A stretch of 64,000 nucleotides of DNA from Deltaproteobacteria bacterium (GCA_029262535.1 JAJCZF010000074.1:78883-142882); one strand, 5' to 3'. Counted from the stretch's first letter, positions 9,140 to 46,942 are shown. The notes: generated from the letters alone by a model not told the origin. Numbers and translations are program-made.

Positions 9140-11335
9140 TTATTTATCTATACGTTTTGTCAGCGAACACTTGCTACCTGTAAGCTCAGGCTCTATAAAG
9201 AGATCGGCTATATAACTGGCCCCGCCGTAACCAATAAAGTGAGAGCCGATGAGTTCCTTTCCGTCGGCCTGCCAGTTGCTGTAAGGGCCGCTGCCTATTA
9301 CGGTACGGTCAAGCAGCTCTCCGTTAAAATAGAAGCAGAGTTGATCGCCGGACCTTGAGACTATCATCTCGGCCCAGCCGTCGTTTCTTCTTGCGAAGAA
9401 GTTCATCTTTTCAAGCAGATAGGGGTGTCTTAGTTTATATAGCTCTATCTTCCCGGTCGCTTCGTTTTTAAGCTCTACCTTTATCTGGCCGCCGATGGTG
9501 AGCAAAACCCTCGGGAAGTTATCCTTCGAGCCGACTATCTCCACATCCTTCCACGGAGGGGCAACCTTAAAGGGCCTGTAGATCCAGGATACGGTAAAAT
9601 CTTTTAAAAGGGGCGAGGCCGCGCCCTTGGCATAGGCCGGGTTCTTTATGATTCGATTATCTTTTGTATATATATGGGTCGCCCTTGTTGGAAACTTGGT
9701 AAGGCGATCGCCAAGCATAAGGTCGAGCGCGATATCCGCTCCGAGATAAAAGCGGCCCCCGTTAAAGGGGTTATAGTCCATCTTTACCTTTGCCGACGGG
9801 TTCTCTTTGGTAAAACTTCTTATGGCGTAGTATGGATCGTCGAGAAAGGCCATATGTTTATCGACCGAGTTATTTGCGATGAGCACATTGTGCGCGTTCC
9901 AGAAAAATACTGCCCCGAGGGCTGCGAGCATTACGGGCCTTAGGGTTTCCCGGTTAAAGCTCTTCCATAGCAAGGCCCCGGCCGCGACGGTCAGGGCGGC
10001 ATTTGGAAAGTAGAGATAACGCGGCTGGCTAATCAGGTATTCAAGGGTATTGGAGTAGACCCTGCCAAGAGAGATGATAGAGAGGTAGGATAGGCCGAGC
10101 CCGACGATAATGAGTACGATAAGGCGCCAACCCTTAACAGGCCTTATAAGTACGACCAGGAAGGATGCAACGATCAGCTTTAAGATATTTTGAAGCTCGG
10201 AAAAGACCCCTTCCGGCGGGGACATATAGACTATATGTACTATCTTGGTCTGCGCCGCTATGCCGATATTTTTTAATAGTAGGGAGCCGTAGATATTTAC
10301 CCACATGCCCTTTATCGTGCGCCCTATATTTTCAGCGCTCAGGAGGTCGCCGGTGGCCATCTTGTGGGTATCTTTTACCAGAGAGTAACCGTAGAGGGTA
10401 ACGAGTATGTAAAGAAGATAAACGGTCACCACACAGATGGCGGCCTTTACGATAAGCCCTTTTTGAAGATTGTTTCCTTCAAGGCGCAAGGCCAGAAAGG
10501 TGATGCAAAAGAGAGCTACCGGGGCGACTATCGCCGGTTCATACAAGAGTATCGATGCCAGTGAAAAAAGGCCTGAGAAGGCCATATAAGAACTCTTTCC
10601 CGTATCGGCAAAGCGGATAGCGAGTAAGACGGCCGCCAGAAGCAGTATCGCACCGCTCATGATATAGATATGGTAGGTCCAGACGACGGTATCAAACTGG
10701 CTCGGCAGCCCGATAAAGATAAGGCCGAAGATAAAGGCGAAGGCGTAATTTCGAATAACCCTTGCCAGCAGGGCGAAGACCATTAACCCCGTGAGCGCAT
10801 GTACCGCGATATTTAAAAGGTGATAGAGGATGATATTATCGGCAAGCAAGAGATGTCGAAAATACATCATCAGATGCGCCAGCGGTTGAAAGCGCATATC
10901 GCCAAAAAGTTCGAATAAGGAGAGCCGTTTTAGATCTTCAAGCGAAAAGCCTTCGACGCCCTGGAAGAGTTTTAATATATACCAGTAATCGCTTCTGAAT
11001 ATATTGGTGATTGTAGGATGAAAGAGCGCTATCGATACGGCCAGGTAGGTCAGGTAGACGAGCGCCGTATCGCCTTTGAATCGGGTTTTAGCGCTGGAAA
11101 GCCGCCCAAAGACCACGGCTGAAAGAAGCGTAACAGACAAAAGCACGGCCCATTGGTATGGAGGGATGGAGTGTGACTCGACAAGAGAGCAATAGAGCAC
11201 GATCAGGGCGATTAAACACGGGCCGATAAGAGTGCCCTTATTATCTTTTAATGCACCAAAGTCCAAAAATTCGTAGCCCCCGTTCTGTTCTTCCGTGTGA
11301 CAGGCCTTGTCTTGCAAGTTGCGACCCTTTCTCAC
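9140..11335 (-). CDS. Large polytopic membrane protein (about 12 TM) with a roughly 280-aa C-terminal extracytoplasmic beta-rich domain; function unknown (possibly GT-C-like or YfhO-like)
   Basis: 731-aa ORF. Residues 40-450 are hydrophobic and the C-terminal domain is soluble. No catalytic motif was recognised. Confidence 0.5.
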   Translation of the reverse strand: MRKGRNLQDKACHTEEQNGGYEFLDFGALKDNKGTLIGPCLIALIVLYCSLVESHSIPPYQWAVLLSVTLLSAVVFGRLSSAKTRFKGDTALVYLTYLAVSIALFHPTITNIFRSDYWYILKLFQGVEGFSLEDLKRLSLFELFGDMRFQPLAHLMMYFRHLLLADNIILYHLLNIAVHALTGLMVFALLARVIRNYAFAFIFGLIFIGLPSQFDTVVWTYHIYIMSGAILLLAAVLLAIRFADTGKSSYMAFSGLFSLASILLYEPAIVAPVALFCITFLALRLEGNNLQKGLIVKAAICVVTVYLLYILVTLYGYSLVKDTHKMATGDLLSAENIGRTIKGMWVNIYGSLLLKNIGIAAQTKIVHIVYMSPPEGVFSELQNILKLIVASFLVVLIRPVKGWRLIVLIIVGLGLSYLSIISLGRVYSNTLEYLISQPRYLYFPNAALTVAAGALLWKSFNRETLRPVMLAALGAVFFWNAHNVLIANNSVDKHMAFLDDPYYAIRSFTKENPSAKVKMDYNPFNGGRFYLGADIALDLMLGDRLTKFPTRATHIYTKDNRIIKNPAYAKGAASPLLKDFTVSWIYRPFKVAPPWKDVEIVGSKDNFPRVLLTIGGQIKVELKNEATGKIELYKLRHPYLLEKMNFFARRNDGWAEMIVSRSGDQLCFYFNGELLDRTVIGSGPYSNWQADGKELIGSHFIGYGGASYIADLFIEPELTGSKCSLTKRIDK

Positions 11336-12126: not shown

Positions 12127-13392
12127 GTGAGTTTAAATTTGATTTCTGGACCGGAGTATATGTTGATAGATTTTAAGGAGCTTGATTCTTTTTCGGGTAA
12201 TTCCACCTCTCCTCTTCTCACCGAAGAGAGAGCCTGTCCTGTATGCGCCTCTACTAGCGCCAAGGCCTTATTCGCCCTTTCTAATTTCCAATTCTATAGC
12301 GACTGCGCGCAGCTACCGAAGCGAACCTATATAAAAGATTGCCAGTGCCTGCACTGTTACGCCATATACCTGAATCCTGCTTACTCTGATTACGGCCTTG
12401 AGGTACTTTTTAAAGAGGCCGGTATGAGTTACGGCTCCTCCGACGGCAGGGCCGATGAAGAGATCGGCTGGCTCTTTGAAAAGGGGCTTCTTAATAGCGG
12501 AACGACTGTAATGGATGTTGGTTGTTACGAGGGGGCCTTTCTTGCAAAGCTCCCGGACGGAGTCTTTGGCATAGGCATAGATATAGACGAGCCGGCCATT
12601 GAGCGTGGCAGGTCAAACTATGCCGGGCGTGATATAAGCTTTATTCACGGCGATTTTGAGAGCTTCGAGTGTGAAGAGAGACCGGGTGTGATCACCATGT
12701 TTCATGTGCTCGAACATCTCTCTCGTCCTGTGGAGGTGCTTAAGAAACTTCGCTCTCTGGCCGATAATAGAACCAGACTTCTTGTAGAGGTGCCGATACT
12801 TGAACTTGGCGCGACAAACGACATTAACGGCTTTTTTTCCGTGCAGCATATGACGCATTTTAGCAGGCAAAGCCTTGCAAATACCCTCGCGCGCGCCGGG
12901 TGGAAGATTATTGATAGATTCGAAGCGCCCGATTATAACGGTTGTAGAGTGCTTGCCGCGCCTGCGAGTGTAGAGGAAGATGTAAGTGGCGATCCGAACG
13001 ATCTTTTTTTGGTTTATAGCTATTTTTCAAAATGGTATGAGGAGCTCGGCAAGGTTGAAGAGCGCTTAATGCGTTATAAAGAGCTGGGGGAAAAGTTTAT
13101 TATTAGAGGCGGCGGGGCCCATACAGAGTTTCTCTACCATATGACCTCTATTCTTCATTCGCGTAAGAGGAGTTATGCCATTGTAGATAACGACCCTATG
13201 AAGAGCGGAACAACGTGGCGCGGTATTACTATTTACAACTCCGAGGCGCTTTCTGACGTGGATTGGTCAGATACCTATATGATAATATCCTCTTATGGTT
13301 CGCAGGAGAAGATCTATGAGCAGGCAGTGTCTGACCACGCTGTGCCAAAGGATAGAATAATCAGACTTTACGATAGCTTGAGGGTTTATTAG
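12127..13392 (+). CDS. Sugar C-methyltransferase-like protein with TylCIII-type architecture (N-terminal zinc ribbon, class I SAM methyltransferase, C-methyltransferase C-terminal domain)
   Basis: CPVC...CLHC zinc ribbon. SAM motif I VMDVGCYEGAF. C-terminal Rossmann-like block IIRGGGAHTEF...AIVDNDPMKSGTTWRGITIYN, matching the Methyltransf_14 pattern (DxNPxKxG). Confidence 0.55.
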   Translation: MSLNLISGPEYMLIDFKELDSFSGNSTSPLLTEERACPVCASTSAKALFALSNFQFYSDCAQLPKRTYIKDCQCLHCYAIYLNPAYSDYGLEVLFKEAGMSYGSSDGRADEEIGWLFEKGLLNSGTTVMDVGCYEGAFLAKLPDGVFGIGIDIDEPAIERGRSNYAGRDISFIHGDFESFECEERPGVITMFHVLEHLSRPVEVLKKLRSLADNRTRLLVEVPILELGATNDINGFFSVQHMTHFSRQSLANTLARAGWKIIDRFEAPDYNGCRVLAAPASVEEDVSGDPNDLFLVYSYFSKWYEELGKVEERLMRYKELGEKFIIRGGGAHTEFLYHMTSILHSRKRSYAIVDNDPMKSGTTWRGITIYNSEALSDVDWSDTYMIISSYGSQEKIYEQAVSDHAVPKDRIIRLYDSLRVY

Positions 13393-13393
13393 A

Positions 13394-14527
13394 GTGACGA
13401 TAAAGAATATTATTTGCGATACCGTAAAAGAGGCCCTGACCTTAGAGGACCTTCTTTTACGAGAAGAGCGCTTCATTATCTTCGGCGCAGGCGGGGCGGG
13501 GCGCGACGCGCGCGCCTATCTTGAGAGAAAAGGCAAAGAGGTACTCTATCTCTCGGATAATGACGAGGCCAAACACGGCACCGTCGTTGACGGTCTTAAG
13601 GTTTTAGGTCCGAAAGAAATCTCTTCTCACGGACTGCATGTAATCATAGCGAGTTACTGGGCAAGAGAGATCGCGCTCCAGCTTAGAGAGCTCGGTATAA
13701 CCGGCTATTCCGACTTAAGCTCCGTCTCAAACGAATCGCTACCAATCGAGAGATGGGCAGGCCATTTTGACGCTGCTTTTATAGAAGAGAATCTGGAAGT
13801 TATAGAAGAGACTTATAATTGGCTTGCCGACGAGAGTTCTAAAGAGACCTTTCTTTCCTTGCTATCTTACCGCCTGACACTCGATCCGGCCCGCCTGTCG
13901 GTTGCGCCTTTTGGCGAGTATCTTCACCCCTTGGTTCGTGCCGAGGCGGGTGAGGTTATTATAGACGGCGGCGCATGGACCGGCGACACGGCCCTTGAGA
14001 CGGCCGTCGCGCTTAAGGGGAAGTGCCGCATATTCTCATTCGAGCCGGAAGATGGTAATTACGAGAGACTTCAAGCGAATATAAATGAGAGTTCTTTTGC
14101 TGATATCGTCACTCCCATAAAACGCGGCCTTTGGCATTCTGAAGAGACCTTATACCTTGGTTCCAATGCCGACAATAGTAAGCAGTTTAGCGTGGATAGT
14201 TCTGTAAATCCTTCCTGTGACGAGGGCTTGCGCATAGAGGTTACATCTATTGATAGTTTTTCCGCGGAGCGTTCTATCGAACCGACGCTTATAAAGATGG
14301 ATATCGAGGGCTCCGAGTGCGAAGCGCTTAACGGAGCGCGAGAGGTCATAAGGCGCAACAGGCCGAAACTTCAGATATCGATATACCATAAGCCGGGCGA
14401 CCTCTGGTTAATCCCGGCTCTTATAAGAGAGATATTGCCCGGTTATAGATTTTATCTATCGCATCATAGCCAGAACCTATTCGAGTCTACCCTTTACGCC
14501 CTGCCGGAAAGGCTGGAGAAGAAGTAA
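13394..14527 (+). CDS. FkbM-family methyltransferase with N-terminal Rossmann-like (C-methyltransferase C-terminal-like) domain
   Basis: N-terminus IIFGAGGAGRDARAYL...YLSDNDEAKHGTVVDGLKVLG. C-terminal block IKMDIEGSECEALNGAREVI is typical of Methyltransf_21/FkbM. Starts 2 bp after the previous stop. Confidence 0.6.
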   Translation: MTIKNIICDTVKEALTLEDLLLREERFIIFGAGGAGRDARAYLERKGKEVLYLSDNDEAKHGTVVDGLKVLGPKEISSHGLHVIIASYWAREIALQLRELGITGYSDLSSVSNESLPIERWAGHFDAAFIEENLEVIEETYNWLADESSKETFLSLLSYRLTLDPARLSVAPFGEYLHPLVRAEAGEVIIDGGAWTGDTALETAVALKGKCRIFSFEPEDGNYERLQANINESSFADIVTPIKRGLWHSEETLYLGSNADNSKQFSVDSSVNPSCDEGLRIEVTSIDSFSAERSIEPTLIKMDIEGSECEALNGAREVIRRNRPKLQISIYHKPGDLWLIPALIREILPGYRFYLSHHSQNLFESTLYALPERLEKK

Positions 14528-14528
14528 T

Positions 14529-15374
14529 ATGGACGATAAACTTTTTACGGAACTTAAAGGCCACGCCGCGACACTCAGGGCGCATATAATACGCATGAAC
14601 TGCTTTGCCGGCTCGGGCCATCCGGGCGGGGCCTTATCCGCGGTCGAGCTTATGGCCTACCTCTTTAATGTCGAGATTAACTTCTCCCCTGAAAATGCGC
14701 TCTCGCCGGATAGAGACCGCTTTGTTCTCTCCAAGGGCCATGCCTGTATGGTGCTCTATGCGGCCCTTGCGGAGAAGGGTTTTTTCTCCACCGAAGAGTT
14801 TCGCGGTTTGAGGCATATAAATTCCATGCTTCAGGGCCATCCCGACAGGCTAAAGACTCCGGGGGTTGAATTTAATTCCGGCTCCCTGTCGCAAGGTTTC
14901 TCTTTTGCCGTAGGTTGCGCTCTCGGCGCGAAACTTACTGGCAGGGATTATCGTGTATATAGCCTGCTCGGTGACGGAGAGATGAACGAGGGGCAGGTAT
15001 GGGAGGCGCTCATGTTCGGGGCCCACAGGAAGCTCGATAATATAGTCGCCATTATCGATTATAATAAGCTACAGAGCGACGATAGCTGTGAAAATATCAC
15101 ATCTCTTGAGCCGCTTTCGGATAAACTCGTCGCGTTCGGCTGGCATGTGATAGATATAAACGGCCACGACCTTAATGAGATAGAATCGGCCTTTGCGGAG
15201 GCGCGCGGGACAAAGCACAAACCCACTGTGATAATCGCCAATACCGTCAAGGGTAAGGGAGTATCCTTTATGGAAGGCAACCCGAAGTGGCACGGCAGCC
15301 TCGCTCCCGCTGGTGAAGAGAGGCGTATAGCCTTTAGCGAGTGCGGGCTAGTCGAAGAAGGTGAGGGAGACTAA
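14529..15374 (+). CDS. Transketolase, N-terminal (TPP-binding) subunit of a split transketolase
   Basis: Motifs GHPGGALS, LSKGHAC and GDGEMNEGQVWEA. 281 aa. Confidence 0.85.
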   Translation: MDDKLFTELKGHAATLRAHIIRMNCFAGSGHPGGALSAVELMAYLFNVEINFSPENALSPDRDRFVLSKGHACMVLYAALAEKGFFSTEEFRGLRHINSMLQGHPDRLKTPGVEFNSGSLSQGFSFAVGCALGAKLTGRDYRVYSLLGDGEMNEGQVWEALMFGAHRKLDNIVAIIDYNKLQSDDSCENITSLEPLSDKLVAFGWHVIDINGHDLNEIESAFAEARGTKHKPTVIIANTVKGKGVSFMEGNPKWHGSLAPAGEERRIAFSECGLVEEGEGD

Positions 15375-16309
15375 TGGCCAATATGAGAGCCGCATTCGGA
15401 GAGGCCCTGGTCGAACTCGGCAAGAAGCGCGACGACTTTGTCGTATTGGACGCCGATGTCGCCGGGGGCACCGGGACCGCCCCGTTTAGAGAGGCCTTTC
15501 CGGATAGATTTATCCAGTGCGCCATAGCAGAGCAGAATATGGTCAGCATGGCAGCCGGACTTTCGACTGCGGGAGTCATACCGATTGTCACCTGTTACGG
15601 GGTCTTTGCCTCAATGCGCGCTATAGAGCAGGCGCGAAACTCGGTGGCATACCCGAACTTTAACGTAAAGATAATCGCCAGCCACCTTGGCGTGGATGTC
15701 GGCCCCGACGGACCCACCCACCAGGCCCTTGAAGATCTAGCCATATATCGCTCCATACCCAACTTTAAGGTCGTAAGCCCGGCGGATCCGTTTGAGCTCA
15801 GGGCGGCTCTCCCGGTTATCCTTGATACGCCGGGGCCCCTCTATATGCGTACCGGCAGGAGCGATCTGCCTGCGATATTCGATAAAGATATAAACTTTAC
15901 ATTAGGCAAGGCATCTATAGTAAGAGAGGGAACGGATGTAACGATCATAGCCGTTGGGGTGATGGTCGCGCGAGCCCTTAAGGCCGCCGAGGGACTTGAG
16001 GGCGAGGGGGTCTCGTGCCGTGTCGTTAATATGAGCACTATTAAACCGATTGATAGAGATATTATAGAAGAGTCCGCAAGGCGAACCGGGGCCATAGTCA
16101 CTGCCGAAGACCATAATATAATCGGCGGACTTGGCGGAGCCGTGGCCGAGGTTATATGCGACAGCGTGCCGGTGCCGGTAGTGCGCGTAGGTATTAAAGA
16201 TAGCTTTGCCGAGTCCGGAGATCCCGCCGAGTTAGCCGCTAAATACGGTGTGGACGCGAGCGCGGTAAGAGAGGCCGTCTTACGGGTACTTCGGCGGGCC
16301 GGTCGTTAG
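15374..16309 (+). CDS. Transketolase, C-terminal (pyrimidine-binding/C-terminal) subunit
   Basis: FGEALVELGKK...VLDADV...QCAIAEQNMVSMAAGLS. The start codon overlaps the stop of the N-terminal subunit (ATGA-type coupling). Confidence 0.85.
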   Translation: MANMRAAFGEALVELGKKRDDFVVLDADVAGGTGTAPFREAFPDRFIQCAIAEQNMVSMAAGLSTAGVIPIVTCYGVFASMRAIEQARNSVAYPNFNVKIIASHLGVDVGPDGPTHQALEDLAIYRSIPNFKVVSPADPFELRAALPVILDTPGPLYMRTGRSDLPAIFDKDINFTLGKASIVREGTDVTIIAVGVMVARALKAAEGLEGEGVSCRVVNMSTIKPIDRDIIEESARRTGAIVTAEDHNIIGGLGGAVAEVICDSVPVPVVRVGIKDSFAESGDPAELAAKYGVDASAVREAVLRVLRRAGR

Positions 16310-16339
16310 TGAGTTTTATCTATAGAGGGAGTTAAGAGT

Positions 16340-17092
16340 ATGTCTGAATCAAGAGCATTGGTAGCGCTCGTTACCGGAGGCGGGCGCGGCATAGGCGCCG
16401 CTATCTCAAAGCGGCTCGCCGCCGACGGTATCCCGGTAGCGCTCTCATATAACGAAGACGCCTCCGCGGCGGAAGATACGAAGTCCTCTATAATAGCCGC
16501 CGGGGGCAGGGCCATGGCCCTTAAGCTTTCGGTTGAGGACCGTAGTTCCATAGAGGCGGCCTTAGCTGATATTGCAGACCGCTTCGGCCCTGTTTCGGTT
16601 CTTGTTAATAACGCGGCCATTGCCCAGGAAAAGCCCTTTGATACCATTACCGATGCGGACTGGGACCGTATGCTTGCCGTCAACCTGCGCGGTCCTTTTG
16701 CGCTTACTCAGGAGCTCTTGCCTGCCATGCTTGAGGCCAGTTTCGGCAGGGTCATTAATATTACTTCCATCGGCGGTCAGTGGGGCGGCTTTAATCAAGT
16801 CCACTACGCGGCCAGTAAAGCGGCGCTTATTAATCTCACTCGTTCTATCGCCAAGATTTACGGCAAAGACGGAATTAACTGTAATGCCGTCTCTCCTGGG
16901 CTCGTTGGAACGGAGATGAGCGCCGCCGAGCTTAGTTCAGAGGCGGGAAGAGAGAAGGTCCGTAATATCCCGGTCGGAAGGATCGCTACCGCAGGTGAAG
17001 TGGCTTCGGTGGTGAGTTTCCTGGCGTCTGAGGATTCGAGTTACGTAACCGGGCAGACTATCAATGTCAACGGGGGAATCTATTTTGACTGA
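16340..17092 (+). CDS. SDR-family oxidoreductase (FabG-like 3-oxoacyl reductase fold)
   Basis: TGGGRGIGAAI glycine motif, NNAAI and YAASKAAL (catalytic Y-x3-K). Confidence 0.8.
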   Translation: MSESRALVALVTGGGRGIGAAISKRLAADGIPVALSYNEDASAAEDTKSSIIAAGGRAMALKLSVEDRSSIEAALADIADRFGPVSVLVNNAAIAQEKPFDTITDADWDRMLAVNLRGPFALTQELLPAMLEASFGRVINITSIGGQWGGFNQVHYAASKAALINLTRSIAKIYGKDGINCNAVSPGLVGTEMSAAELSSEAGREKVRNIPVGRIATAGEVASVVSFLASEDSSYVTGQTINVNGGIYFD

Positions 17093-18308
17093 CGCGCTCG
17101 TTATAGTGGGCGCGGGAATTGAACAGATAAAGGCCTACGAGCTTGCATCGAAGATGGGTTTTTTTGTAATAGGCACAGATATTAATCCCGAGGCTCCTGC
17201 CTTTGACAATGCCGACGATAAGGTAATCGCCTCTACCAGAGACCCTGACGCCACGCTCTCGGCTCTTAAGAAATACTTCTCTCTCAACTCTTCTTTGAAC
17301 TTTTCCGGTATTATGACCATCGCAAACGACGTGCCGCTAACGGTTGCGACCGTTAGCAACGAGTTCGGCCTTCCGGGTATTTCGGTCGATTCCGCCCTTA
17401 TCGCATCCGATAAAGTCCTCATGAAAAATGTCTTTAAGTCCAATGGTGTAAAGATACCTCTCTTTAGAGAGATCGGGTCTTCGGAAGAGATAGCTATCGC
17501 CATGAATGAATGGTCCGGCCCCATCGTAATAAAACCGGTAGACGGGAGGGGGGCTCGCGGTGTGCTGCTCCTGACCGAAGATACGGACTTTGAGTGGGCC
17601 TACAGAGAGAGCATGAGTTTTTCTACGGTTAAAAGGGTTATGCTTGAGGCCTTTATCGACGGACCGCAGATTAGCACGGAGTCGTTTCTCATAGACGGCA
17701 GCTCCATTACCCCGGCATTTTCCGATAGAAACTATGAAGACTTTCTTTCTTACGCCCCTTATATTATTGAAGACGGCGGTACCTTGCCGGCGCTCTTAAG
17801 CGACGAAGAACGCCGCCTTATCAATAAACTTGTAGAAGATGGCTCAGCCGCCATGGGCATAACCGACGGCATTGTTAAGGGCGATATAGTAATGGGTGAA
17901 GATGGGCCGGTAATCATAGAGCTAGCCGCGAGGCTTAGCGGCGGCTACTTTGCAAGCGACCAGATCCCTCTCTCGACCGGCGTGGACCTTGTTAAAGAGT
18001 CGATCCGTTTTGCCACCGGCTCGAAGGTTGATATAAATGACCTGGCGGTTAAGCGGACGCGCGGCGTTGCGATAAGATATTTTTTTCCTCCCGAAGGGCT
18101 TGTGCGTGAGATTCATGGGGCCGAAGGGCTTGGTGATATGGCCGGGGTCGTAAAGAGTGAGATCTTTATAAAACCGGGTGATATTCAACAAAAGGTAAAG
18201 GCGCATCCGGAGAGGGCCGGTTTCGTAATCGCTGTGGCCGAGAGTAGAAGCGACGCCGTTAAGATGGTAGAGGCGGCAATAGATAGTGTTGAATTTATAA
18301 TTGATTGA
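17064..18308 (+). CDS. ATP-grasp domain protein (carboxylate-amine ligase-like)
   Basis: PIVIKPVDGRGARGVLL and the following central-domain pattern. The first ATG overlaps the upstream SDR gene by 29 nt. Confidence 0.6.
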   Translation: MSTGESILTDALVIVGAGIEQIKAYELASKMGFFVIGTDINPEAPAFDNADDKVIASTRDPDATLSALKKYFSLNSSLNFSGIMTIANDVPLTVATVSNEFGLPGISVDSALIASDKVLMKNVFKSNGVKIPLFREIGSSEEIAIAMNEWSGPIVIKPVDGRGARGVLLLTEDTDFEWAYRESMSFSTVKRVMLEAFIDGPQISTESFLIDGSSITPAFSDRNYEDFLSYAPYIIEDGGTLPALLSDEERRLINKLVEDGSAAMGITDGIVKGDIVMGEDGPVIIELAARLSGGYFASDQIPLSTGVDLVKESIRFATGSKVDINDLAVKRTRGVAIRYFFPPEGLVREIHGAEGLGDMAGVVKSEIFIKPGDIQQKVKAHPERAGFVIAVAESRSDAVKMVEAAIDSVEFIID

Positions 18309-19342
18309 TCTCTCATATCGGTTATCAAAAGAAAGAAGGTAGAGTGCATTCGATTGTATTTGATATAGGCGGCACTCATCTCAGGAGCGCCGTTTCCGAC
18401 GGAGAAGCGAAGCTTGACAAGGTGGAGAAGGAGCGGATACCCTCCTTTATCGAGGGGCTCTCTTCGGGCGAGGTTTGGCAGGGGCTGATAGAAAAACTTA
18501 CGACTTATGCGTTAAAGGTAGAGGACGAGGTAGAAAAAGGCGCGCCAATAGTTCTTTCATTTCCAGGTCCTGTCGAGCACCCGTCAAGAATATTGAGCGC
18601 TCCAACATTGGTTGGCAACGAGAGGTCGATGCCCGATCTCGCCGCGCTGATTACGCGGGCTACCGGGCGTCGAACATATATTATAAACGACCTTTCCGCC
18701 GCCGCATGGTACTTGCAAAGGAATATTTCAGACGACAGATTCATAGTCGTTACGGTCAGTAGCGGCATCGGCAGCAAGATATTCGACAGGACCCGTCTCT
18801 CAGGCGTTCTCGATAACCTGCCCTTTGCCGGAGAGATCGGCCACATAACGATGGAGAGTGCAGATGGCGACGTCCGGTGCGATTGCGGCGGCATGAATCA
18901 CATCGGCGCTATCTCATCGGGGCGCGGAGTAGAGCGCCTTGCAAGGAGCATGGCCATTAGCCATCCGGAATGTTTTCGGGCCTCCGTTATTGCAAGGCAG
19001 TTCAAGGCCGCAGCCGAAGAGCTTACGAACGAAGCCCACATAGTGCCTGCGGCGCGGCTCGGAGACCCGTGGGCGCTGGACATTATTGCACGCGCTACCG
19101 CTCCGCTTGCCCGAGCGCTCCTGGCCGTAACTGTCGCTTCCGGCCTTGAGAGGGTCGTTGTGATCGGCGGCTTCGCCCTCTCGCTTGGAGACATATACTT
19201 AAAAGCGCTCAAAAATGAAATGCTAAAAATAAGTGATTATGATATGATATCCGACAGGATAGAGGGTCTCCTTGTCATGGGAAAGGCCGGCGAGGAGGCC
19301 TGTCTTGAGGGCGCGGCTCTCTATGCGCTCTCCATTAGATAG
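18305..19342 (+). CDS. ROK/BadF-type sugar kinase family protein
   Basis: N-terminal VFDIGGTHLRSAV (ATPase fold) and a Cys/His cluster CDCGGMNHIGA. Overlaps the upstream stop by 4 nt. Confidence 0.55.
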   Translation: MISHIGYQKKEGRVHSIVFDIGGTHLRSAVSDGEAKLDKVEKERIPSFIEGLSSGEVWQGLIEKLTTYALKVEDEVEKGAPIVLSFPGPVEHPSRILSAPTLVGNERSMPDLAALITRATGRRTYIINDLSAAAWYLQRNISDDRFIVVTVSSGIGSKIFDRTRLSGVLDNLPFAGEIGHITMESADGDVRCDCGGMNHIGAISSGRGVERLARSMAISHPECFRASVIARQFKAAAEELTNEAHIVPAARLGDPWALDIIARATAPLARALLAVTVASGLERVVVIGGFALSLGDIYLKALKNEMLKISDYDMISDRIEGLLVMGKAGEEACLEGAALYALSIR

Positions 19343-19441
19343 CCTGCCAGGTAATCTGCCAGATAATCAGATAGATAGTCTGGCAGGGGCAGCCCGAAGT
19401 TCCCTCACAAAATAACCTACACCTCGTAATTACTCTGAAAA

Positions 19442-20581
19442 ATGTTATTGATAATCATTGTCATCTTAGCCGTAATACTGACCTCTTACTCTATACACGA
19501 TATTTACTATCTGCGCGTCAAAGGGCGCGGGAGCTCGCAAGGCGGTTCTATCCCCCGGCCCAGCCCCAGCTCCGGCGACTGGCCGCGCATTACTTGCGTC
19601 ATTCCGGCTGCCAATGAAGAAAAGACGATCGGGCCGAAGGTCTCTAATCTAAAGAAGGCCTATCCGCCGGATAAGATGGAGATCATGGTCGTTCTTAATA
19701 ACTCTACCGACTCGACTGCCGAGATATGCCGTGAGCTTGACGTTACACTTATAGAGAGCGCACCGGGCAAACAGATGGCTCTGGAGGCGGCTCGCCTCAA
19801 GGCAACGACAGATTATATCCTTGTAACCGACGCGGATGTTAAGCTTGAGACAGATACGGTAAAGAAGCTTGTCGCCGACCTTCAGGACGCGCCGGACGAC
19901 GTTATAGTCGTTTCCGGCTATTGCGAATATTCCTTTAACCGTAAGAGCCGTACCGGCAAGAAGATGAACGAGCATGAACATAAACAGGCCTACCTCTGCG
20001 AGCTTCAGGGGGTCGATGCAAGCTCGGCAATTATTCAGGGACCGTGTTATGTATATAAGAGAGAACTCTTTCCATCTTACCCTACAGGTGCTATGGAGGA
20101 CGAGCTCTCGGTTGCAATCGAGATTGCGGCCTCGGGTTATAGGGCGAGGACCAATGCCGGGGCCCGCTGCTTTCAGTATGTCGATACCGAACCCTTAAGG
20201 CTAATATCGATGTTGACGCGTCACGCGGGGCGTCAGGTGCATAGCTGCCTAAAGCAGTTCGGCGTGATCTTTAACCGGCGCGCAGGCGCTTATAGCCGTT
20301 TTATATTTCCTTTTTATATATTCATACCGAGGTGCCTGCCCATTGTAACGCTCTTTGTCCTGTCGATACCGTTTCTTGTGGATTTAAATATTGGCTACTT
20401 CTTTCCTTGCTGTATAGCCGCCTTTATCTTTATAGCCGCTCTAAACCCGTTTGTCGCCATGCAGATTATCGCCATACATCTGGGCTGGCTCTATCTTATT
20501 ACCCACAGGAAGCATGCCTCGACGTGGCACAATGACAACCGGGCGAGGATAAAATTTTCGGGAGAGAGCCAGGGTAGCTAA
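19442..20581 (+). CDS. Family 2 glycosyltransferase with C-terminal transmembrane helices
   Basis: ITCVIPAANEE...MVVLNNSTDSTAEI...LVTDADV (DxD). 3-4 C-terminal TM helices. Confidence 0.7.
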   Translation: MLLIIIVILAVILTSYSIHDIYYLRVKGRGSSQGGSIPRPSPSSGDWPRITCVIPAANEEKTIGPKVSNLKKAYPPDKMEIMVVLNNSTDSTAEICRELDVTLIESAPGKQMALEAARLKATTDYILVTDADVKLETDTVKKLVADLQDAPDDVIVVSGYCEYSFNRKSRTGKKMNEHEHKQAYLCELQGVDASSAIIQGPCYVYKRELFPSYPTGAMEDELSVAIEIAASGYRARTNAGARCFQYVDTEPLRLISMLTRHAGRQVHSCLKQFGVIFNRRAGAYSRFIFPFYIFIPRCLPIVTLFVLSIPFLVDLNIGYFFPCCIAAFIFIAALNPFVAMQIIAIHLGWLYLITHRKHASTWHNDNRARIKFSGESQGS

Positions 20582-20598
20582 TCTGGCGTTATGATAAT

Positions 20599-21702
20599 AT
20601 GTCCTTACCCAAGACACTTTTGTTAAATAGTCTGCGTCTGAACGCGGTTCCCTTTAGCCTTATCCACTTCGTTACGGACAGGTGTAACCTGAGGTGCGGC
20701 CATTGCTTTATCTATGGCGACTTCGAGGGGCAGGGCGAGGACCTTCGCTATCCGGGCGAAAATACCCTTACCATCGAAGAGATCGAATCTCTAACAAAGA
20801 GCCTCCGGGGGGAGCTTGGCGTGATCTCGCTTACCGGAGGCGAACCATTCTTGCGTGACGACCTTATAGATATCGCCAAGCTATATGCGATAAACGCCGG
20901 GGCGCGAATCGTGGAGGTCTCGACCAACGGCTGGTACGGGGATAAGCTTGTCGAGTTTATTACGGCCTTCCTTCCGGCTACTAAATCGGAACTCTTTATA
21001 TCCTTATCTTTCGACGGGCTTAAATCTACCCATGATAAGTTACGTGGAAAAGAAGGCGCGTTCGACCGTGCAGCCGAAACGGCAAGGACCGTGCTTGCCA
21101 TGAAGGAGGCCAGGGTTCAAGTAAGCGCAACCATTACCGTGACCGATCAATCGACCGAGGAGATGGAAGAGCTATTTCACTTTCTTATAGACGAAGTCAA
21201 GATCGACGCCGTTACCACCTCGGCCGTAAGGGGCGAACCCAGGTCAGACGGAAGTATGGCCTTTAATATGGAGAGCTATAAGCTCTTGAATCGTCTTATC
21301 GAAGAACATATGCTCGGCGGCTCCATAACGCCATTTAGCAACTACGTGGGCCGCGACCTTATAAATGCCAGGGGGGTGCTCGCCAGAAGAAGGGTTGAGG
21401 AGACGCTTGAGAAGAATAAGTATATCGCCCCGTGTACCGCAGGGCGCTCTCTTGCGATAGTCTACTCCGACGGCGCGGTCTATCCCTGTGAGATTCTTGA
21501 CGAGAAGATGGGAGAGCTAAGAAAGTTCGGTATGGATCTTCCCGCGCTCTTAAAGTCGAAAGAGGCGCGCTCGGTCGTCAAGGGCATACACGACAAGAAA
21601 TGCTTTTGCAGCTTCGAGTGCGCCTGGACATATAATACGATATTCGAGATGAAGAACTGGAAGGATCTCTTCAAGGAGTACCTGAAGTTAAAGGGGAGAT
21701 AG
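20599..21702 (+). CDS. Radical SAM enzyme with C-terminal SPASM/twitch-like cysteine-rich domain
   Basis: CNLRCGHC (CxxxCxxC) near the N-terminus. A C-terminal Cys cluster (…PCTAG…YPCEIL…KCFCSFECAW) follows. Confidence 0.75.
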   Translation: MSLPKTLLLNSLRLNAVPFSLIHFVTDRCNLRCGHCFIYGDFEGQGEDLRYPGENTLTIEEIESLTKSLRGELGVISLTGGEPFLRDDLIDIAKLYAINAGARIVEVSTNGWYGDKLVEFITAFLPATKSELFISLSFDGLKSTHDKLRGKEGAFDRAAETARTVLAMKEARVQVSATITVTDQSTEEMEELFHFLIDEVKIDAVTTSAVRGEPRSDGSMAFNMESYKLLNRLIEEHMLGGSITPFSNYVGRDLINARGVLARRRVEETLEKNKYIAPCTAGRSLAIVYSDGAVYPCEILDEKMGELRKFGMDLPALLKSKEARSVVKGIHDKKCFCSFECAWTYNTIFEMKNWKDLFKEYLKLKGR

Positions 21703-22016
21703 AGGGAAGAGGAAGGGGGGCGACACTTAAAGGGAGCGCCTGCTACCGCACTTAAGGTTTTTGCGTAGGCGCTCGATATCCAGCCGCAAAAGAGACCGTG
21801 ACCACCGCTTGCTCTCTTCCCGGTTTCGTTAAGGCATGACGGAGATTAAACGATTGACTGTGGAATGGAAATAGGATTATATGAGGTTATCTATCGCTAT
21901 GCCGTTTTAAAAAAGACGATACGGGCGAGAAAGTTTTAGACTAAGGGAGGGCTTCTGTCTGCAACTCACTTGAAGAGTTTTTGCAGCCCCTTACTGCGAC
22001 AAAGAGGTCTCTATAC

Positions 22017-23499
22017 GATGGAAACTAAAAAGAGGACCACGGTAAAAAAACTCACAGAGCGTATCAAAGAACTGGAACTACTCGTCAAGGTATCGACCAT
22101 GATATCCTCCATGCTTGAGCTGCCGAGGCTGCTTGAAGATATTATGAACATAGCCAAGCGGATAGTCGGCGCTGAGGCATGTTCCGTTCTGCTGGTGGAT
22201 AAGGAAACGGGCGACCTCACCTTTAGCGTGGCGATGGGCCAAAAGGGAGAAGAGGTAAAGAAGTTCAGGATAAAGCCCGGCCAGGGGATATCGGGCTGGG
22301 TCTACGAGCACGGCGAGACGCTCTTGATCGAAGACGCCCAGGCCGATGAGAGGTTCTACGGCAAGGTGGATAAGGACACGGGGTTTATTACGAAGAGCAT
22401 GGTGACGGCCCCGCTGATTGTCCATGAAAGAACCGTGGGCGTGATACAGGTCATAAACAAGGCAAGCGGCGGCTTCTTTACCGAAGAAGACATGCAGACG
22501 CTTATTTCAATCTCGGGGCCGATGGCGGTAGCCATTGATAACGCTGTAATGGCCGAGGAGCTGAAGGAGTCGAACAGGCAGATAGAACTCTATAGCAGAG
22601 ACCTCGAAGGCATGGTCCGGGAGAGGACCGAAGAACTCACAAAGGCCAACATGGAGATCAAGCTCGGACAGGCCAGGCTGCTTCAAACCGAAAAGCTCGC
22701 TTCAATAGGCCAACTCGCCGCGGGCGTGGCCCACGAGATAAACAACCCGCTGAGCTTTGTCCGAAGCAACCTTGGTGCCATAAAAAGCTCTACGGATAGT
22801 TTTTTTGAGATCATAGAGAGCTATGGGCGCGTTCTTGAGGGTATCGATTCTCCGGAGGTCGCCCTCGCGGCGGTGGAACTTAATTCCGTCAAGGATAAGC
22901 TCGACTTTGACTTCTTGAAAGAGGACATGGGAGAGCTTCTAAGCGAGTCGTACCAGGGCATCGACAGGGTGACCGATATCGTTGGCACCCTCAAGGATTT
23001 TTCAAACATAGACCGCGCCGATAGAAGACGCCAGAATCTTAACAAATTGATAGATACCGCCTTAAGCGTTCTTGAGAGCAGGGTCGGGCCGAATGTCAAG
23101 CTTGTAAAGGACTATGCCGAGTTACCCCTCGTAGAGTGCCTTACGAGCGAGACAAACCAGGTCTTTTTTAATATACTGGATAACGCCTTTACGGCCATAG
23201 GCGAAAACGGTCTGATTACCGTCAGGACCAAAAGCGGCGAAGAGACCGTATTCGTAGAGATAACCGACAGCGGAGAAGGTATCGGTGAAGAGCATCTGGG
23301 CAAGGTCTTTGATCCCTTTTTTACTACGCATGAGCCCGGCAATGGGACCGGTCTAGGCCTGACCATCACCTATAATATAATCAAACGACACGGCGGAGAG
23401 ATCAGCGTCAAGAGCCGGCCTGGAGAAGGAACGACCTTTACTGTAGAGTTTCCAATAAGGATGGCCGAAGAGACGCTGGAGGGCGTCCTCTCGGCCTGA
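22017..23499 (+). CDS. GAF-domain sensor histidine kinase
   Basis: Coiled-coil, a GAF-like region, an H-box [15 protein letters not shown] and a HATPase G-box GTGLGLTI. The first in-frame start codon is at 21970. ATG 22017 has the better RBS (AAAGAGG). Confidence 0.8.
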
Positions 23500-23686
23500 A
23501 CCGCCGACCCGAATTCGAATGGGCGAAAAAAACGCTTGGACGGCTTTCCGCTCTTTGGCGGGATATCTCTGGAGGCTTCCTGCCTAATGCTGGACAGCAC
23601 GCGTGGTTTGGCATATTATATTGACCGGCATGATAGCGCAGTACATGTTTGTCTATGAAGCTTTAAATAATGCAAGGTTATCTTAG

Positions 23687-25102: not shown

Positions 25103-25104
25103 AA

Positions 25105-26463: not shown

Positions 26464-26489
26464 CGGTTCGTGTGGATTCGTTCTAGTTA

Positions 26490-27029: not shown

Positions 27030-27307
27030 TATTTTAAAGCCTATAATTTATAATTTCAATAAGTAATTTTTATCGTTTGTACTATCTTATGTCTGGCATG
27101 GGCCTTGTTTGCTATTTACATATCGTCATTAGATTATGTATAATATAATATTATATTCATGCTCTGCACTATCATTTGATTTTTGAAATATAGCACGATA
27201 CTACTCAAGCTGCCTCTTGTATCCTATCCTGTTGAAGCCTCACCCGTTAAGGCAAGCGAGTTTTAGTCAAGTCGTTATCTCTCATTATAAGGTAAAGGGG
27301 AGACCAG

Positions 27308-30856: not shown

Positions 30857-30881
30857 GAAGATTGCTCAAAAAAGAGATCTG

Positions 30882-31256: not shown

Positions 31257-31292
31257 TAAAGAGCTCTTCTTTTCCTTGAAAGGATTTGACTG

Positions 31293-32426: not shown

Positions 32427-32449
32427 GGCCGGACCACCAGAGATGACAT

Positions 32450-44304: not shown

Positions 44305-44306
44305 AG

Positions 44307-46100: not shown

Positions 46101-46111
46101 GAGAATAAGGT

Positions 46112-46930: not shown

Positions 46931-46942
46931 GAACTCTTAAAA

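Follow-up and report, generated by a model that had tools for sequence, protein, structure and literature searches.

A split-transketolase sugar-decoration cassette beside a GT2-radical SAM pair: a candidate composite glycan-tailoring locus in a deltaproteobacterium

Nine open reading frames, all on the plus strand, fill positions 12127-21702 of the 64,000-nucleotide stretch of deltaproteobacterial DNA that was analysed (hereafter, the window), and the question raised by this row is whether it encodes one pathway or several placed side by side. The ORF map and the Pfam and NCBIfam matches agree with the initial annotation on the families: two methyltransferases, a split transketolase, an SDR, an ATP-grasp ligase, a ROK kinase, a GT2 glycosyltransferase and a radical SAM enzyme. 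A 790-nt gap upstream parts the row from a divergent gene, and one of more than 260 nt follows it; a consensus scan of its interior detected no terminator and no excess of promoters. While its description as a compact co-directional row stands, several of the overlaps and start codons given for it needed correction. The most likely start of the first gene is ATG 12160, preceded by GGAG and consistent with homologues of 409-410 aa, rather than GTG 12127. The transketolase halves meet at TAATG, with a 1-nt overlap (15372-15376), and not at ATGA. The reported 29-nt overlap between the SDR and the ATP-grasp gene holds if the latter starts at ATG 17064, but shrinks to 8 nt with the in-frame TTG 17085, which has a GGGGGAA ribosome-binding site and yields a 407-aa product of homologue-like length. 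Likewise, the 4-nt overlap of the ATP-grasp and ROK genes holds for TTG 18305, but gives way to a 35-nt gap with GTG 18344, where the public gene call for the kinase (P0241, 332 aa) begins.

Set against related loci, the row does not behave as the single conserved unit that the nine genes had been taken for: in the comparative data its first six genes form a cassette, the ROK kinase is unrelated to them, and the GT2-radical SAM pair is conserved separately. The comparison set comprises 41 non-redundant loci of the first methyltransferase (MT1) from many phyla, 29 of them with a ThDP enzyme, which is a transketolase in 11 and AHAS-like in 18. The view that the row is a glycan-tailoring set is upheld. 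The combination with a radical SAM enzyme is as unusual as had been supposed: not one of the 41 cassette loci has it, and the cassette is missing from all five distinct GT2/radical SAM contexts that were fetched. Our reading, offered tentatively and with slightly less than even confidence, is that the row is a composite in which an Sfm-type acylation cassette (module A, 12160-18308) is followed by the kinase and by the GT2-radical SAM pair (module B, 19442-21702), with the steps proposed below.

The cassette has a life of its own in other bacteria. Its order, MT1-FkbM-N-terminal transketolase half-C-terminal half-SDR-ATP-grasp, is identical in Geoalkalibacter ferrihydriticus (L002) and a Chlorobiaceae MAG (L020), and is kept in a further locus (L024) up to the SDR, where the contig ends; the cassette proteins of the window are 37 to 61% identical to those of these three. 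Genes for pseudaminic or legionaminic acid (PseB, PseC, NeuB or a CMP-transferase) lie within 10 kb in 37 of the 41 MT1 loci, and several also have Maf and flagellin. This link of the cassette to nonulosonic acids and flagellin went unnoticed in the initial annotation. A GH57-like protein is encoded in 20 of the 29 ThDP-containing loci and is missing from the window. Likewise absent from the 64-kb window are flagellar genes such as flagellin, Maf, and any gene for nonulosonic acids, an aminotransferase, a 4,6-dehydratase or a nucleotidyltransferase, the nonulosonic-acid genes being missing from the 11 kb upstream and the 42 kb downstream of the row.

The ThDP enzyme of the cassette consists of an N-terminal ThDP/PP-domain half (14529..15374, 281 aa; Transketolase_N, PF00456, 1e-51) and a C-terminal half with the Pyr and C domains (15374..16309, 311 aa; Transket_pyr, PF02779, 1e-44; Transketolase_C, PF02780, 1.5e-35). 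These match the split transketolase of Carboxydothermus hydrogenoformans (PDB 6YAK at 2e-84 and 6YAJ at 1.4e-100, respectively), with which, as with human-type short transketolases, they have the domain split, the fold and the ThDP GDG...N motif in common. Judged by bit scores, the enzyme resembles a bona fide split transketolase roughly as closely as it does the cassette transketolases; unlike the latter, it keeps the THQ histidine. Its N-terminal half contains the cassette-type signature NKLQSDD, and its C-terminal half has DADVAGGTG and VGPDG, as do all 11 island transketolases; the corresponding stretches of two bona fide transketolases read SKST/KNST and GEDG. Because these signature substitutions are common to the 11 cassette enzymes and absent from the two bona fide ones, they support its being a dedicated rather than a housekeeping enzyme, at least as judged from sequence. 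The change from GEDG to GPDG typifies the cassette subfamily, as does AGGT in place of SKST/KNST, the serine of which we take to be a binder of the substrate phosphate; the Arg/His/Arg residues that presumably also bind this phosphate are present in the window's enzyme. Transketolase and AHAS-like enzymes never occur together (11 versus 18 of the 29 ThDP-containing loci), an alternation not expected of a pentose-phosphate-pathway transketolase. This mutual exclusion, along with the 421 bits that the AHAS-like enzyme scores on the biosynthetic acetolactate synthase model, implies that the two probably fill one role, that of a two-carbon carboligase.

The FabG-like classical SDR (16340..17092, 250 aa; adh_short 1e-55), a proposed ketoreductase, scores up to 238 bits on FabG models, under their equivalog cut-offs, and its orthologues (46-61%) adjoin the ThDP enzyme in 25 of the 29 loci. 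The carboxylate-amine ligase (17064..18308; LAL_C2 1.6e-16, ATP-grasp_3) is an ATP-grasp protein of the L-amino-acid-ligase type, with matches to PDB 4DIM (5e-18), the L-amino-acid ligases 3VOT and 4WD3, and BacD; its orthologues (39-47%) occur in 21 of the 29. The FkbM methyltransferase (13394..14527, 377 aa; PF05050 3e-14, TIGR01444 2.5e-21, PDB 2PY6 6e-21) has an N-terminal PglD_N/NeuD-like Rossmann domain (NeuD/PglB N-terminal match 2.4e-6), and orthologues of it (37-44%) are found in transketolase-type cassettes only (4/11 versus 0/18 of the AHAS type; p=0.014).

The closest studied system is sfmBCDE of Shewanella, which we liken to the cassette by the domain and size descriptions in the published account. 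In Shewanella oneidensis MR-1 the flagellin modification operon sfmABCDE (SO_3261-SO_3265) encodes NeuB, a 581-aa ThDP enzyme, a FabG-like SDR (255 aa), a 395-aa SAM methyltransferase and a 412-aa ATP-grasp protein. The operon is required for the flagellin glycan, in which a Pse-like sugar of 274 Da bears a single acetyl as well as a basic group (Bubendorfer et al., 2013; PMC3765264). The composition of this sugar is ordinary, Pse minus acetyl (C11H18N2O6), and it bears a separate N-free C9H16O7 group (236 Da) with 0-2 methyls, which NMR and methanol loss identified as O-methyls (PMC3765264). The enzyme set and sizes are the same as those of the cassette (ThDP enzyme, SDR, ~400-aa methyltransferase and ~410-aa ATP-grasp), and AHAS-type loci such as L004 and L031 add NeuB, PseB/C and Maf as Shewanella does. 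The window differs in having a split transketolase in place of the IlvB-like protein, an extra FkbM methyltransferase, no nearby NeuB, Pse, Maf or flagellin genes, and a ROK kinase and GT2-radical SAM pair after the cassette, where most fetched loci have the GH57-like protein. Acyl groups that are O-methylated or polyhydroxylated are documented on Pse itself: 2-methoxy-4,5,6-trihydroxy-hexanoyl in Treponema denticola (PMC13439194), N-glyceroyl at C-7, with the site stated as N7, in Tannerella (PMC5378307), and 2,3-di-O-methylglyceroyl in C. jejuni 11168.

Two complete islands, L004 and L006, have no GNAT/PseH-type gene listed, and in them the ATP-grasp enzyme occupies the place of PseH in the pathway, which points to N-acylation of the sugar with a hydroxy-acid. 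We favour a scheme in which the cassette would make a polyhydroxy acid, join it to a sugar amine by an amide bond and O-methylate it, over one in which a keto-sugar is C-branched. First, the ThDP enzyme would move a two-carbon unit onto an aldehyde acceptor, with the split transketolase donating a glycolaldehyde unit, and the acetolactate-synthase-like enzyme of most relatives an acetyl unit from pyruvate. Second, the SDR would turn the resulting alpha-hydroxyketone into a vicinal diol, leading to the polyhydroxy carboxylic acid. Third, the ATP-grasp ligase would form the acyl phosphate and couple the acid to a nucleotide-linked amino sugar at its free amine group; in the flagellar islands the ligase would replace the PseH acetyltransferase and would act on the amine destined to be N7 of pseudaminic acid. 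Fourth, MT1 would O-methylate the acyl chain, and FkbM may methylate the extra primary hydroxyl unique to the transketolase route. Against this scheme stand the absence from the window of nonulosonic-acid and GH57-like genes, the likeness of its transketolase to a bona fide split enzyme, with the THQ histidine kept, and the want of a simple route to the C9 group of Shewanella.

MT1 (12160..13392, longest ORF from 12127, 410 aa; Methyltransf_23, E 8e-16) bears on the scheme first suggested for the locus, a branched, C-extended sugar. There, the ThDP enzyme would place a two-carbon ketol branch on an NDP-4-keto sugar, the SDR would reduce the carbonyl of the side chain, MT1 would C-methylate the carbon beside the keto group, and the GT2 would transfer the product. 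The protein begins with a four-Cys zinc ribbon, continues with a class I methyltransferase core and ends in a Rossmann-like nucleotide-binding domain, an organization common to the NDP-hexose C-methyltransferases TylCIII, TcaB9, KijD1 and MtmC. Invariant residues among its 583 homologues (best identity 55%, the source's own record left out) include C26/C29/C63/C66, H182/E185/H186 and H230/H233. The AF2 model (pLDDT 90) finds full-length MtmC, KijD1 and TcaB9 as its top PDB fold matches (TM 0.65-0.71 over ~415-430 aligned columns, E 1e-17 to 4e-22), albeit at an identity of only 13-18%, and hhalign against a TylCIII-type protein gives a probability of 82% (E 1e-5). Its naming as TylCIII-type, to which neither Pfam (the Methyltransf_13 and Methyltransf_14 signatures are missed) nor BLASTP lends support, is sustained by the three-domain fold and the profile comparison, and the model supports a nucleotide-sugar methyltransferase fold of the TylCIII/TcaB9 type. 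A PxKQGK-like C-terminal motif also aligns, as do two histidines in a profile alignment, which we take to be the equivalents of H181 and H225, catalytic in C-methyltransferases; by the numbering that we assume for TcaB9, the equivalents of E224 and Y222 are Q and F.

The full fold and the retained histidines would suit C-branching, as would the 4-keto sugar that PseB provides in the islands. Moreover, there are precedents for sugar branching by both ThDP classes, the AHAS-like YerE with the YerF reductase in yersiniose and the E1-type AviB1/AviB2 in avilamycin, where, as here, a carboligase in a glycan locus is followed by a ketoreductase. The cassette parts from these systems in that the product of its Shewanella homologue has no branched sugar, the extra carbons residing in the separate N-free, O-methylated unit. 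Further, a branch at C4 would prevent amination by PseC, an enzyme that every one of these islands has; the ATP-grasp ligase, which like O-methylation is integral to the cassette and not to the YerE/YerF or AviB1/AviB2 systems, would be left without a role; the SDR is of the classical FabG type and not an extended sugar-nucleotide SDR; and MT1 lacks the two Pfam signatures. We accordingly regard C-branching as unlikely; the genetic context, given a Shewanella product that bears O-methyls, suggests by analogy that MT1 performs O- rather than C-methylation.

Between the modules lies a ROK sugar kinase without an HTH domain (18305..19342; PF00480 6e-22), with the motifs DIGGT and CDCGGMNH and with scores under the cut-offs of the NanK and glucokinase models. 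Its homologues (45-59%) are often called "C7-cyclitol 7-kinase" in JGI naming, an automatic annotation; one directly follows a 669-aa gene of the DHQ-synthase family, a 28% relative is fused to such a gene, and another homologue neighbours an aldo-keto reductase and an alcohol dehydrogenase. The kinase is thus placed in a subfamily with links to sugar-phosphate cyclases. One might accordingly picture a non-glycan small molecule, a cyclitol or pseudo-sugar, with the transketolase as the source of a ketose phosphate, the ROK protein as a kinase of the cyclitol type, and the ATP-grasp ligase and methyltransferases tailoring the product in the style of mycosporine-like amino acids, whose pathways pair an ATP-grasp enzyme with an O-methyltransferase (MysC/MysB). 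We consider this very improbable: the 64-kb window yielded no gene for a sugar-phosphate cyclase, the cassette context elsewhere is overwhelmingly that of nonulosonic acid and flagellin, and a membrane GT2 comes next in the row. As no cassette or GT2-radical SAM locus has a counterpart of the kinase, it is probably an add-on between modules, unrelated to either elsewhere.

The last two genes are a conserved pair in their own right. The GT2 (19442..20581, 379 aa; Glycos_transf_2, PF00535, 1e-20) has, by sequence and hydropathy, a TM segment at its N terminus and two or more at its C terminus, along with a GT-A domain and a DAD motif. The radical SAM enzyme (20599..21702, 367 aa; PF04055 4e-18) combines a CNLRCGHC motif with a C-terminal auxiliary-cluster (SPASM/twitch-like) domain. 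Its earlier labelling as SPASM falls below the Pfam threshold (18.7 versus a cut-off of 21.5 bits), but finds backing in five conserved C-terminal cysteines (C279, C297, C335, C337 and C341) and in the fold of the AF2 model (pLDDT 89), which matches SkfB, BlsE, CteB, SuiB, anSME and DesII (TM about 0.55-0.62). It has only 191 homologues, two of them fused to a GT2 domain (P0203, P0216), and in L046, L048 and L050 a GT2 (60, 43 and 39% identical) lies directly upstream of the radical SAM gene (64, 53 and 53%). The pair is elsewhere near cell-envelope glycosylation genes: it adjoins DegT in L046 and L048, the latter also with sugar dehydratase/epimerase genes, and PMT_2 GT-C genes lie beside the pair or a homologue in L046, L048 and L052; a PMT_2 gene is also present in the window, at 1140-2786. 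In the ArnC/ArnT-type route, a sugar is put on polyprenyl phosphate by a GT2 and then moved to an envelope acceptor by a GT-C of the PMT_2 family. The membrane-bound GT2 with its GT-A domain and TM helices, the PMT_2 neighbours of its homologues and the nearby DegT aminotransferase genes all resemble this route, although similarity to ArnC itself is marginal (8VXH, E 0.005), the best structural relative being the archaeal membrane mannosyltransferase 6YV7 (1.6e-13), and the Arn pathway has no radical SAM partner.

Finally, the modules might simply be neighbours, with the cassette decorating a nonulosonic acid that is made elsewhere in the genome and destined for flagellin or some other glycoprotein, the kinase unrelated, and the GT2-radical SAM pair belonging to a separate envelope-glycan route. 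That they never co-occur in the 41 cassette loci or the GT2-radical SAM loci fits this account, as do the unrelated contexts of the ROK homologues and the sole long spacer of the row, 99 nt between the ROK and GT2 genes, which contains a stable hairpin (19356..19386, plus strand; -29.2 kcal/mol for the fold of 19335-19445, z = -2.77, equalled in 1 of 200 shuffles) and marks the module boundary as well as a possible site of processing, attenuation or partial termination. GT2 enzymes are not known to use CMP-sugars, which also favours separate routes. Against this, all genes lie on one strand, with spacings of -4 to +35 nt between the ATP-grasp and ROK genes and of 17 nt between the GT2 and radical SAM genes; the scan of the row for terminators and promoters was negative, the hairpin having no T-run 3' of it and no terminator call; and the nonulosonic-acid genes that most relatives keep within 10 kb are absent from the flanks of the row. 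We judge mere neighbourhood to be somewhat improbable, though a stronger contender than C-branching. Because the two modules never occur together elsewhere and are split here by the kinase and the hairpin-bearing spacer, it is adjacency, as the sole basis, that suggests their functional coupling. Under the composite reading, the membrane GT2 would pass the finished sugar from module A to a membrane-bound, probably polyprenyl-phosphate, acceptor, the radical SAM enzyme would modify the GT2 product, and delivery of this product to the cell envelope would fall to a GT-C transferase whose gene lies elsewhere.

The nine co-directional genes on the + strand at 12127-21702 are best read as a transketolase-subtype variant of the Shewanella Sfm-like acylation and methylation cassette (genes 1-6), lacking the usual nonulosonic-acid and flagellar context, with a ROK kinase gene placed before a GT2-radical SAM pair (genes 8-9) of the envelope-glycan type. 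The reading frames are confirmed, and Pfam and NCBIfam bear out the families given in the initial annotation, namely a class I SAM methyltransferase of 410 aa (MT1), an FkbM methyltransferase, the halves of a split transketolase (TKN and TKC), a classical SDR, an ATP-grasp ligase with a LAL_C2 domain, a ROK kinase, a GT2 glycosyltransferase and a radical SAM enzyme (rSAM). The first five genes follow one another at spacings of 1 nt, 1 nt, a 1-nt overlap and 30 nt; the SDR and ATP-grasp genes overlap by 29 nt or, more likely, 8 nt, and the ATP-grasp and ROK genes by 4 nt or, more likely, are separated by 35 nt. The spacers on either side of the GT2 gene measure 99 nt (from ROK) and 17 nt (to rSAM). 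Contrary to the earlier description, the transketolase halves meet at TAATG rather than ATGA. The likely starts are ATG 12160 for MT1, TTG 17085 for the ATP-grasp and GTG 18344 for the ROK, the last agreeing with a public gene call (P0241). The ROK/GT2 spacer, the one long spacer of the row, holds a hairpin that exceeds 199 of 200 shuffled sequences in stability. The fold 3' of the last gene was not significant, and consensus scans for promoters and terminators found sites no more numerous than in shuffles. Rfam, run over the whole window and permissively over the 5' leader, gave no riboswitch, a tRNA being its sole match, and megablast of the region against plasmids gave no match.

The cassette is widespread: a search with MT1 recovered 583 homologues of the same length from many phyla, at identities of 55% or less once the source's own record is excluded. 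In Geoalkalibacter ferrihydriticus, a Methylobacter MAG and a 5.3-Mb assembly, the MT1 neighborhoods are flagellin glycosylation islands, with genes for a PseB-like dehydratase, a DegT/PseC aminotransferase, NeuB/PseI, a CMP-transferase (fused in locus L002 to a PseG-like domain), Maf, flagellin, FlaG, FliD and FliS. Scanning species-representative genomes with an MT1 alignment brought in 38 more loci, from Acidobacteriota, Desulfobacterota, Gemmatimonadota, Chloroflexi, Firmicutes, Solirubrobacterales, Bacteroidota, Chlorobiaceae and Proteobacteria. Using tblastn, the window proteins and reference island proteins were compared with all loci and counted over 41 non-redundant ones. A ThDP enzyme adjoins MT1 in 29/41, and these 29 loci frequently also code for a FabG-like SDR (25), an ATP-grasp ligase (21) and a GH57-like protein (20). 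At least one nonulosonic-acid gene (PseB, PseC, NeuB or CMP-transferase) lies within 10 kb in 37/41 loci. Of the four remaining, three are contigs of less than 9 kb and the fourth is L025, a stretch of 13,279 bases from a Desulfuromonas MAG, in which the MT1 orthologue (2059-3279, 50% identity) is the sole match. No other cassette or nonulosonic-acid gene occurs within 10 kb downstream of it, and L025 is possibly a second case of MT1 away from its usual context. The gene order MT1-FkbM-TKN-TKC-SDR-ATP-grasp is identical in L002 and L020, and in L024 up to the contig end, with the window's cassette proteins 37-61% identical to those of these three loci. The GH57-like protein, of ~650-690 aa with an N-terminal GH57-like domain, lies 3' of the ATP-grasp in L002 (9374-11362), L004, L006, L008 and 16 others, and its only PDB relative is a 4-alpha-glucanotransferase (E 1e-7). 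It is absent from the window, where the ROK takes its position. Searching plasmids with MT1 by tblastn gave only relatives of 21-24% identity, such as a distant MT1-like frame on S. meliloti 1021 pSymB (L063, 701191-702327; ~23% identity over 89% of the query). Such frames are conserved across many Sinorhizobium meliloti strains, in a stretch that is unannotated in the plasmid collection.

The closest described counterpart is the sfmABCDE operon of Shewanella oneidensis, which encodes NeuB, a 581-aa ThDP enzyme, a FabG-like reductase, a 395-aa SAM methyltransferase and a 412-aa ATP-grasp protein, adjoins Maf genes, and on deletion abolishes flagellin modification (PMC3765264). All four elements of the Sfm-type core, i.e. 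the ThDP carboligase, the FabG-like SDR, the ~400-aa MT1-type methyltransferase and the LAL-type ATP-grasp, are adjacent in the window, the likeness being one of domain types and lengths as given in PMC3765264. The Shewanella flagellin glycan is a 274-Da pseudaminic acid (Pse)-like sugar, C11H18N2O6, with one acetyl and a basic group, which bears a nitrogen-free unit of C9H16O7, C10H18O7 or C11H20O7 and O-methyls seen by NMR and methanol loss (PMC3765264). We derived no unique structure for C9H16O7 from the enzyme set; 3,9-dideoxy-nononic acid fits the formula as a matter of arithmetic. Comparable acyl groups decorate Pse elsewhere, namely 2-methoxy-4,5,6-trihydroxy-hexanoyl on Treponema denticola flagellin (PMC13439194), N-glyceroyl at C-7 in Tannerella, for which the authors call the responsible enzymes unknown (PMC5378307), and 2,3-di-O-methylglyceroyl in C. 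jejuni 11168. Gene-by-gene inspection of the complete islands L004 and L006 listed no GNAT/PseH-type acetyltransferase.

The ThDP enzyme comes in two forms. Eleven loci encode a split transketolase and 18 an enzyme resembling acetolactate synthase (AHAS), the latter scoring 421 bits on TIGR00118 and matching AHAS structures at 2e-85; no locus has both. FkbM orthologues follow this division, occurring in 4/11 transketolase-type as against 0/18 AHAS-type loci (Fisher p = 0.014). The window halves match the split transketolase of Carboxydothermus hydrogenoformans (PDB 6YAK, 6YAJ) at 2e-84 and 1.4e-100, and together contain the TK_N, Pyr and C domains (Pfam, NCBIfam), with the ThDP motif GDGEMNEG...DYN in the alignment. 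They differ from canonical enzymes at two sites shared with all 11 island transketolases: DAD(V/I)AGGTG takes the place of DADLSKST in C. hydrogenoformans and DGDTKNST in human, and VGPDG that of GEDG in both. The AGGTG substitution presumably removes the serine that binds the substrate phosphate in transketolase. Since AGGTG and GPDG are common to the 11 island enzymes, the window pair is a cassette enzyme rather than a housekeeping one, and these cassette-type substitutions speak, as far as the window allows, against its being the genome's sole housekeeping transketolase. The histidine of the DGP(T/S)HQ motif, which is alanine in 11/11 island transketolases, is kept in the window as in bona fide transketolases; combined with the cassette substitutions, this places the window enzyme between the cassette and canonical types. 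A search for transketolase together with flagellin glycosylation or nonulosonic acids returned nothing relevant in the searchable literature, and neither the transketolase subtype nor its FkbM link was found there.

As for the METHYLTRANSFERASES, FkbM has an N-terminal domain of the NeuD/PglD type, and MT1 had initially been described as TylCIII-like. By direct signatures this label fails: Pfam finds a generic methyltransferase core only, with neither Methyltransf_13 nor Methyltransf_14 even at E<=5, and BLASTP against the TylCIII-type protein of L048 is not significant. By fold and profile comparison it stands. An AlphaFold (AF2) model built from 30 homologues (pLDDT 90) has as its best PDB matches in Foldseek the full-length nucleotide-sugar C3-methyltransferases MtmC, KijD1 and TcaB9 (TM 0.65-0.71, identity 13-17%), and displays a three-domain fold of a zinc ribbon with four invariant cysteines, a SAM domain and a nucleotide-binding C-domain. 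With hhalign, MT1 and the TylCIII-type protein align at 82% probability over 289 columns spanning all three domains, including two histidines and a C-terminal P-x-KQGK motif. The Foldseek and hhalign results bear the label out as regards fold and remote homology. If the TcaB9 catalytic set is H181, Y222, E224 and H225, as we take it to be, H186 and H230 of MT1 align with its two histidines, with Q229 and F226 standing for the glutamate and tyrosine. The modelled fold implies a nucleotide-sugar substrate but does not establish C-methylation.

The Shewanella product data, the acyl groups of Pse and the absence of a PseH-type gene from the listings of L004 and L006 lead us to infer, at each chemical step, an acylation mechanism for the cassette. 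First, the ThDP enzyme would add a two-carbon unit to an aldehyde, the AHAS type donating an acetyl unit that leaves a terminal CH3, and the transketolase a glycolaldehyde unit that leaves a terminal CH2OH. The SDR would then reduce the ketone; the LAL-type ATP-grasp would join the resulting polyhydroxy acid to a sugar amine in the stead of PseH; MT1 would O-methylate the product; and FkbM may methylate the extra primary hydroxyl of the transketolase route. The initial annotation had instead predicted a branched, C-extended sugar. This is possible chemistry, for which the fold of MT1 speaks and which reportedly has precedents for ThDP-type sugar branching in YerE/YerF and AviB1/B2, but it agrees poorly with the Shewanella product data and gives the ATP-grasp no role. 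The initial interpretation as a whole is supported in part.

The rest of the row has a separate distribution. Homologues of the ROK, GT2 and rSAM are found by tblastn in 0 of 41 cassette loci, which agrees with the earlier remark that the combination of such a cassette with a radical SAM enzyme is unusual. The rSAM belongs to a small family (191 matches), whose nearest relatives of the window protein, at 64, 53 and 53% identity, are each encoded immediately 3' of a GT2 sharing 60, 43 and 39% identity with that of the window, in the same order. P0203 and P0216 are GT2-rSAM fusion proteins. P0203 and the fusion at L053:4999-6918 are single proteins of 622-639 aa, and the latter belongs to a polysaccharide locus that also encodes three B12-binding radical SAM enzymes, a Wzx-like flippase and GT4 enzymes. 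Around the pair in L046, L048, L052 and L053 the neighbors vary, and include PMT_2 GT-C proteins, DegT, sugar dehydratase/epimerases, TPR proteins, a genuine TylCIII-type methyltransferase and B12-radical SAM enzymes. The window GT2 (PF00535) has a GT-A domain with a TDAD motif, a single TM segment at the N-terminus and two or more at the C-terminus. Its best solved relative is the membrane mannosyltransferase 6YV7, its ArnC match being weak; by analogy with the PMT_2 GT-C genes beside its homologues, its acceptor would be a lipid phosphate. The rSAM has the motif CNLRCGHC (CX3CX2C) and five conserved C-terminal cysteines, CX17C...CXCX3C, as against the full 7-Cys SPASM pattern, with Pfam SPASM scoring 18.7 bits against a cut-off of 21.5. 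Its model (pLDDT 89) resembles SkfB, BlsE, CteB, SuiB, anSME and DesII, and taken together the motif, the C-terminal cysteines and the model suggest a SPASM/twitch-like enzyme.

The ROK (PF00480, 6e-22) has intact kinase motifs, namely DIGGT and CDCGGMNH with histidine for the third cysteine, and no HTH. Its subfamily shows links elsewhere to sugar-phosphate cyclases. Its homologues at 45-59% identity are often auto-annotated as C7-cyclitol kinases. One (54%) lies 3' of a 669-aa DHQ-synthase-family gene (L057:7987-10996), with epimerase, DeoRC-domain and cupin genes. A more distant relative, at 28%, is a 747-aa ROK-DHQS fusion (L054:9947-12190), and another homologue is encoded beside an alcohol dehydrogenase and an aldo-keto reductase. 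No cyclase gene is present in the window. A metagenome scan with the ROK gave only 27-28% relatives, one of which (L056) is an ordinary glucokinase beside heme genes.

There are no nonulosonic-acid, Maf, flagellar or flagellin genes within the 64-kb window. Divergent from the row, at 9140-11335 on the - strand, lies a gene for a 731-aa polytopic membrane protein without a Pfam or NCBIfam family, with ~11-13 predicted TM segments in its first ~490 residues, a ~240-aa soluble C-terminal domain and a weak Laminin_G_3 match (E 0.11). Its topology resembles that of a GT-C glycosyltransferase but is only suggestive of a GT-C partner, as BLASTP and hhalign against PMT_2 were not significant. Some ~9 kb upstream of it (1140-3871, - strand) are genes for an ArnT-like GT-C membrane protein of the PMT_2 family and, next to it, a GDSL/SGNH esterase. 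In L046, L048 and L052 the GT2-rSAM pair is flanked by PMT_2 genes, and L053 contains a GDSL gene; these two could be distant partners of the pair. Directly downstream of the row is a signalling run (21970-38176, + strand), with a GAF histidine kinase, a hybrid kinase, two response-regulator/HD-GYP proteins, a 1182-aa Cache/HAMP hybrid kinase, a PAS-rich kinase and an MHYT-PAS-GGDEF cyclase. A second small cluster (43573-49589, + strand) codes for a thermostable-hemolysin-family protein, an acyl-activating (AMP-binding) enzyme, a TPR protein, a radical SAM enzyme, an SDR and a 193-aa protein of no family, possibly a lipid or small-molecule pathway. The tRNA-Val(CAC) at 41670-41744 (- strand), a heme-copper oxidase cluster at 50533-57667 (+ strand; COX3, SCO1-like, COX1, CtaA, CtaB/UbiA and a second COX1-like protein) and a phosphate-selective porin at 6712-7911 suggest that the organism is Gram-negative and lives aerobically or microaerobically. 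The same proteins as the window's also occur in runs SRR15505516 and SRR15505517.

Among the cases examined, the window alone shows the cassette away from nonulosonic-acid and flagellar genes and linked to a GT2-rSAM pair. The coupling of cassette and pair is suggested only by adjacency, and the alternative that they are neighbors only and form no single pathway is a substantial one. A connection could run through the substrate. In L046 and L048 the pair adjoins DegT, and in L048 also sugar dehydratase/epimerase genes, whose products would make NDP-4-amino-6-deoxyhexoses. Such amino sugars belong to the class proposed as the cassette's acylation substrate in Pse islands, so that the GT2 could pass an amino sugar, once acylated and methylated, on to a lipid carrier. 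Taken jointly, the idea that a cassette decorating flagellar Pse/Leg was redeployed and joined to the GT2-rSAM pair, building a lipid-linked O-methylated polyhydroxyacyl-amino sugar for the envelope, and that the transketolase/AHAS swap is a CH2OH-versus-CH3 switch across the acyl-decoration family, is one we put forward tentatively and consider rather doubtful.

What stands out is the transketolase/AHAS swap, the FkbM correlation, the proposed PseH replacement and the unique GT2-rSAM junction, the last involving an uncharacterised and sometimes fused system. The window locus and its 41 relatives define a cassette logic of a ThDP carboligase (transketolase or AHAS-like), a ketoreductase, an ATP-grasp that would stand in for PseH, and putative O-methyltransferases. 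The enzymes making unusual acyl groups on sialic-acid-like sugars are largely unknown (PMC5378307), and such groups affect motility, phage recognition and immune detection. If the proposal is true, the swap would explain the still-unsolved acyl groups of the Shewanella and Treponema flagellins. The detached cassette beside a GT2-rSAM pair hints that the same chemistry may act on another envelope glycoconjugate.
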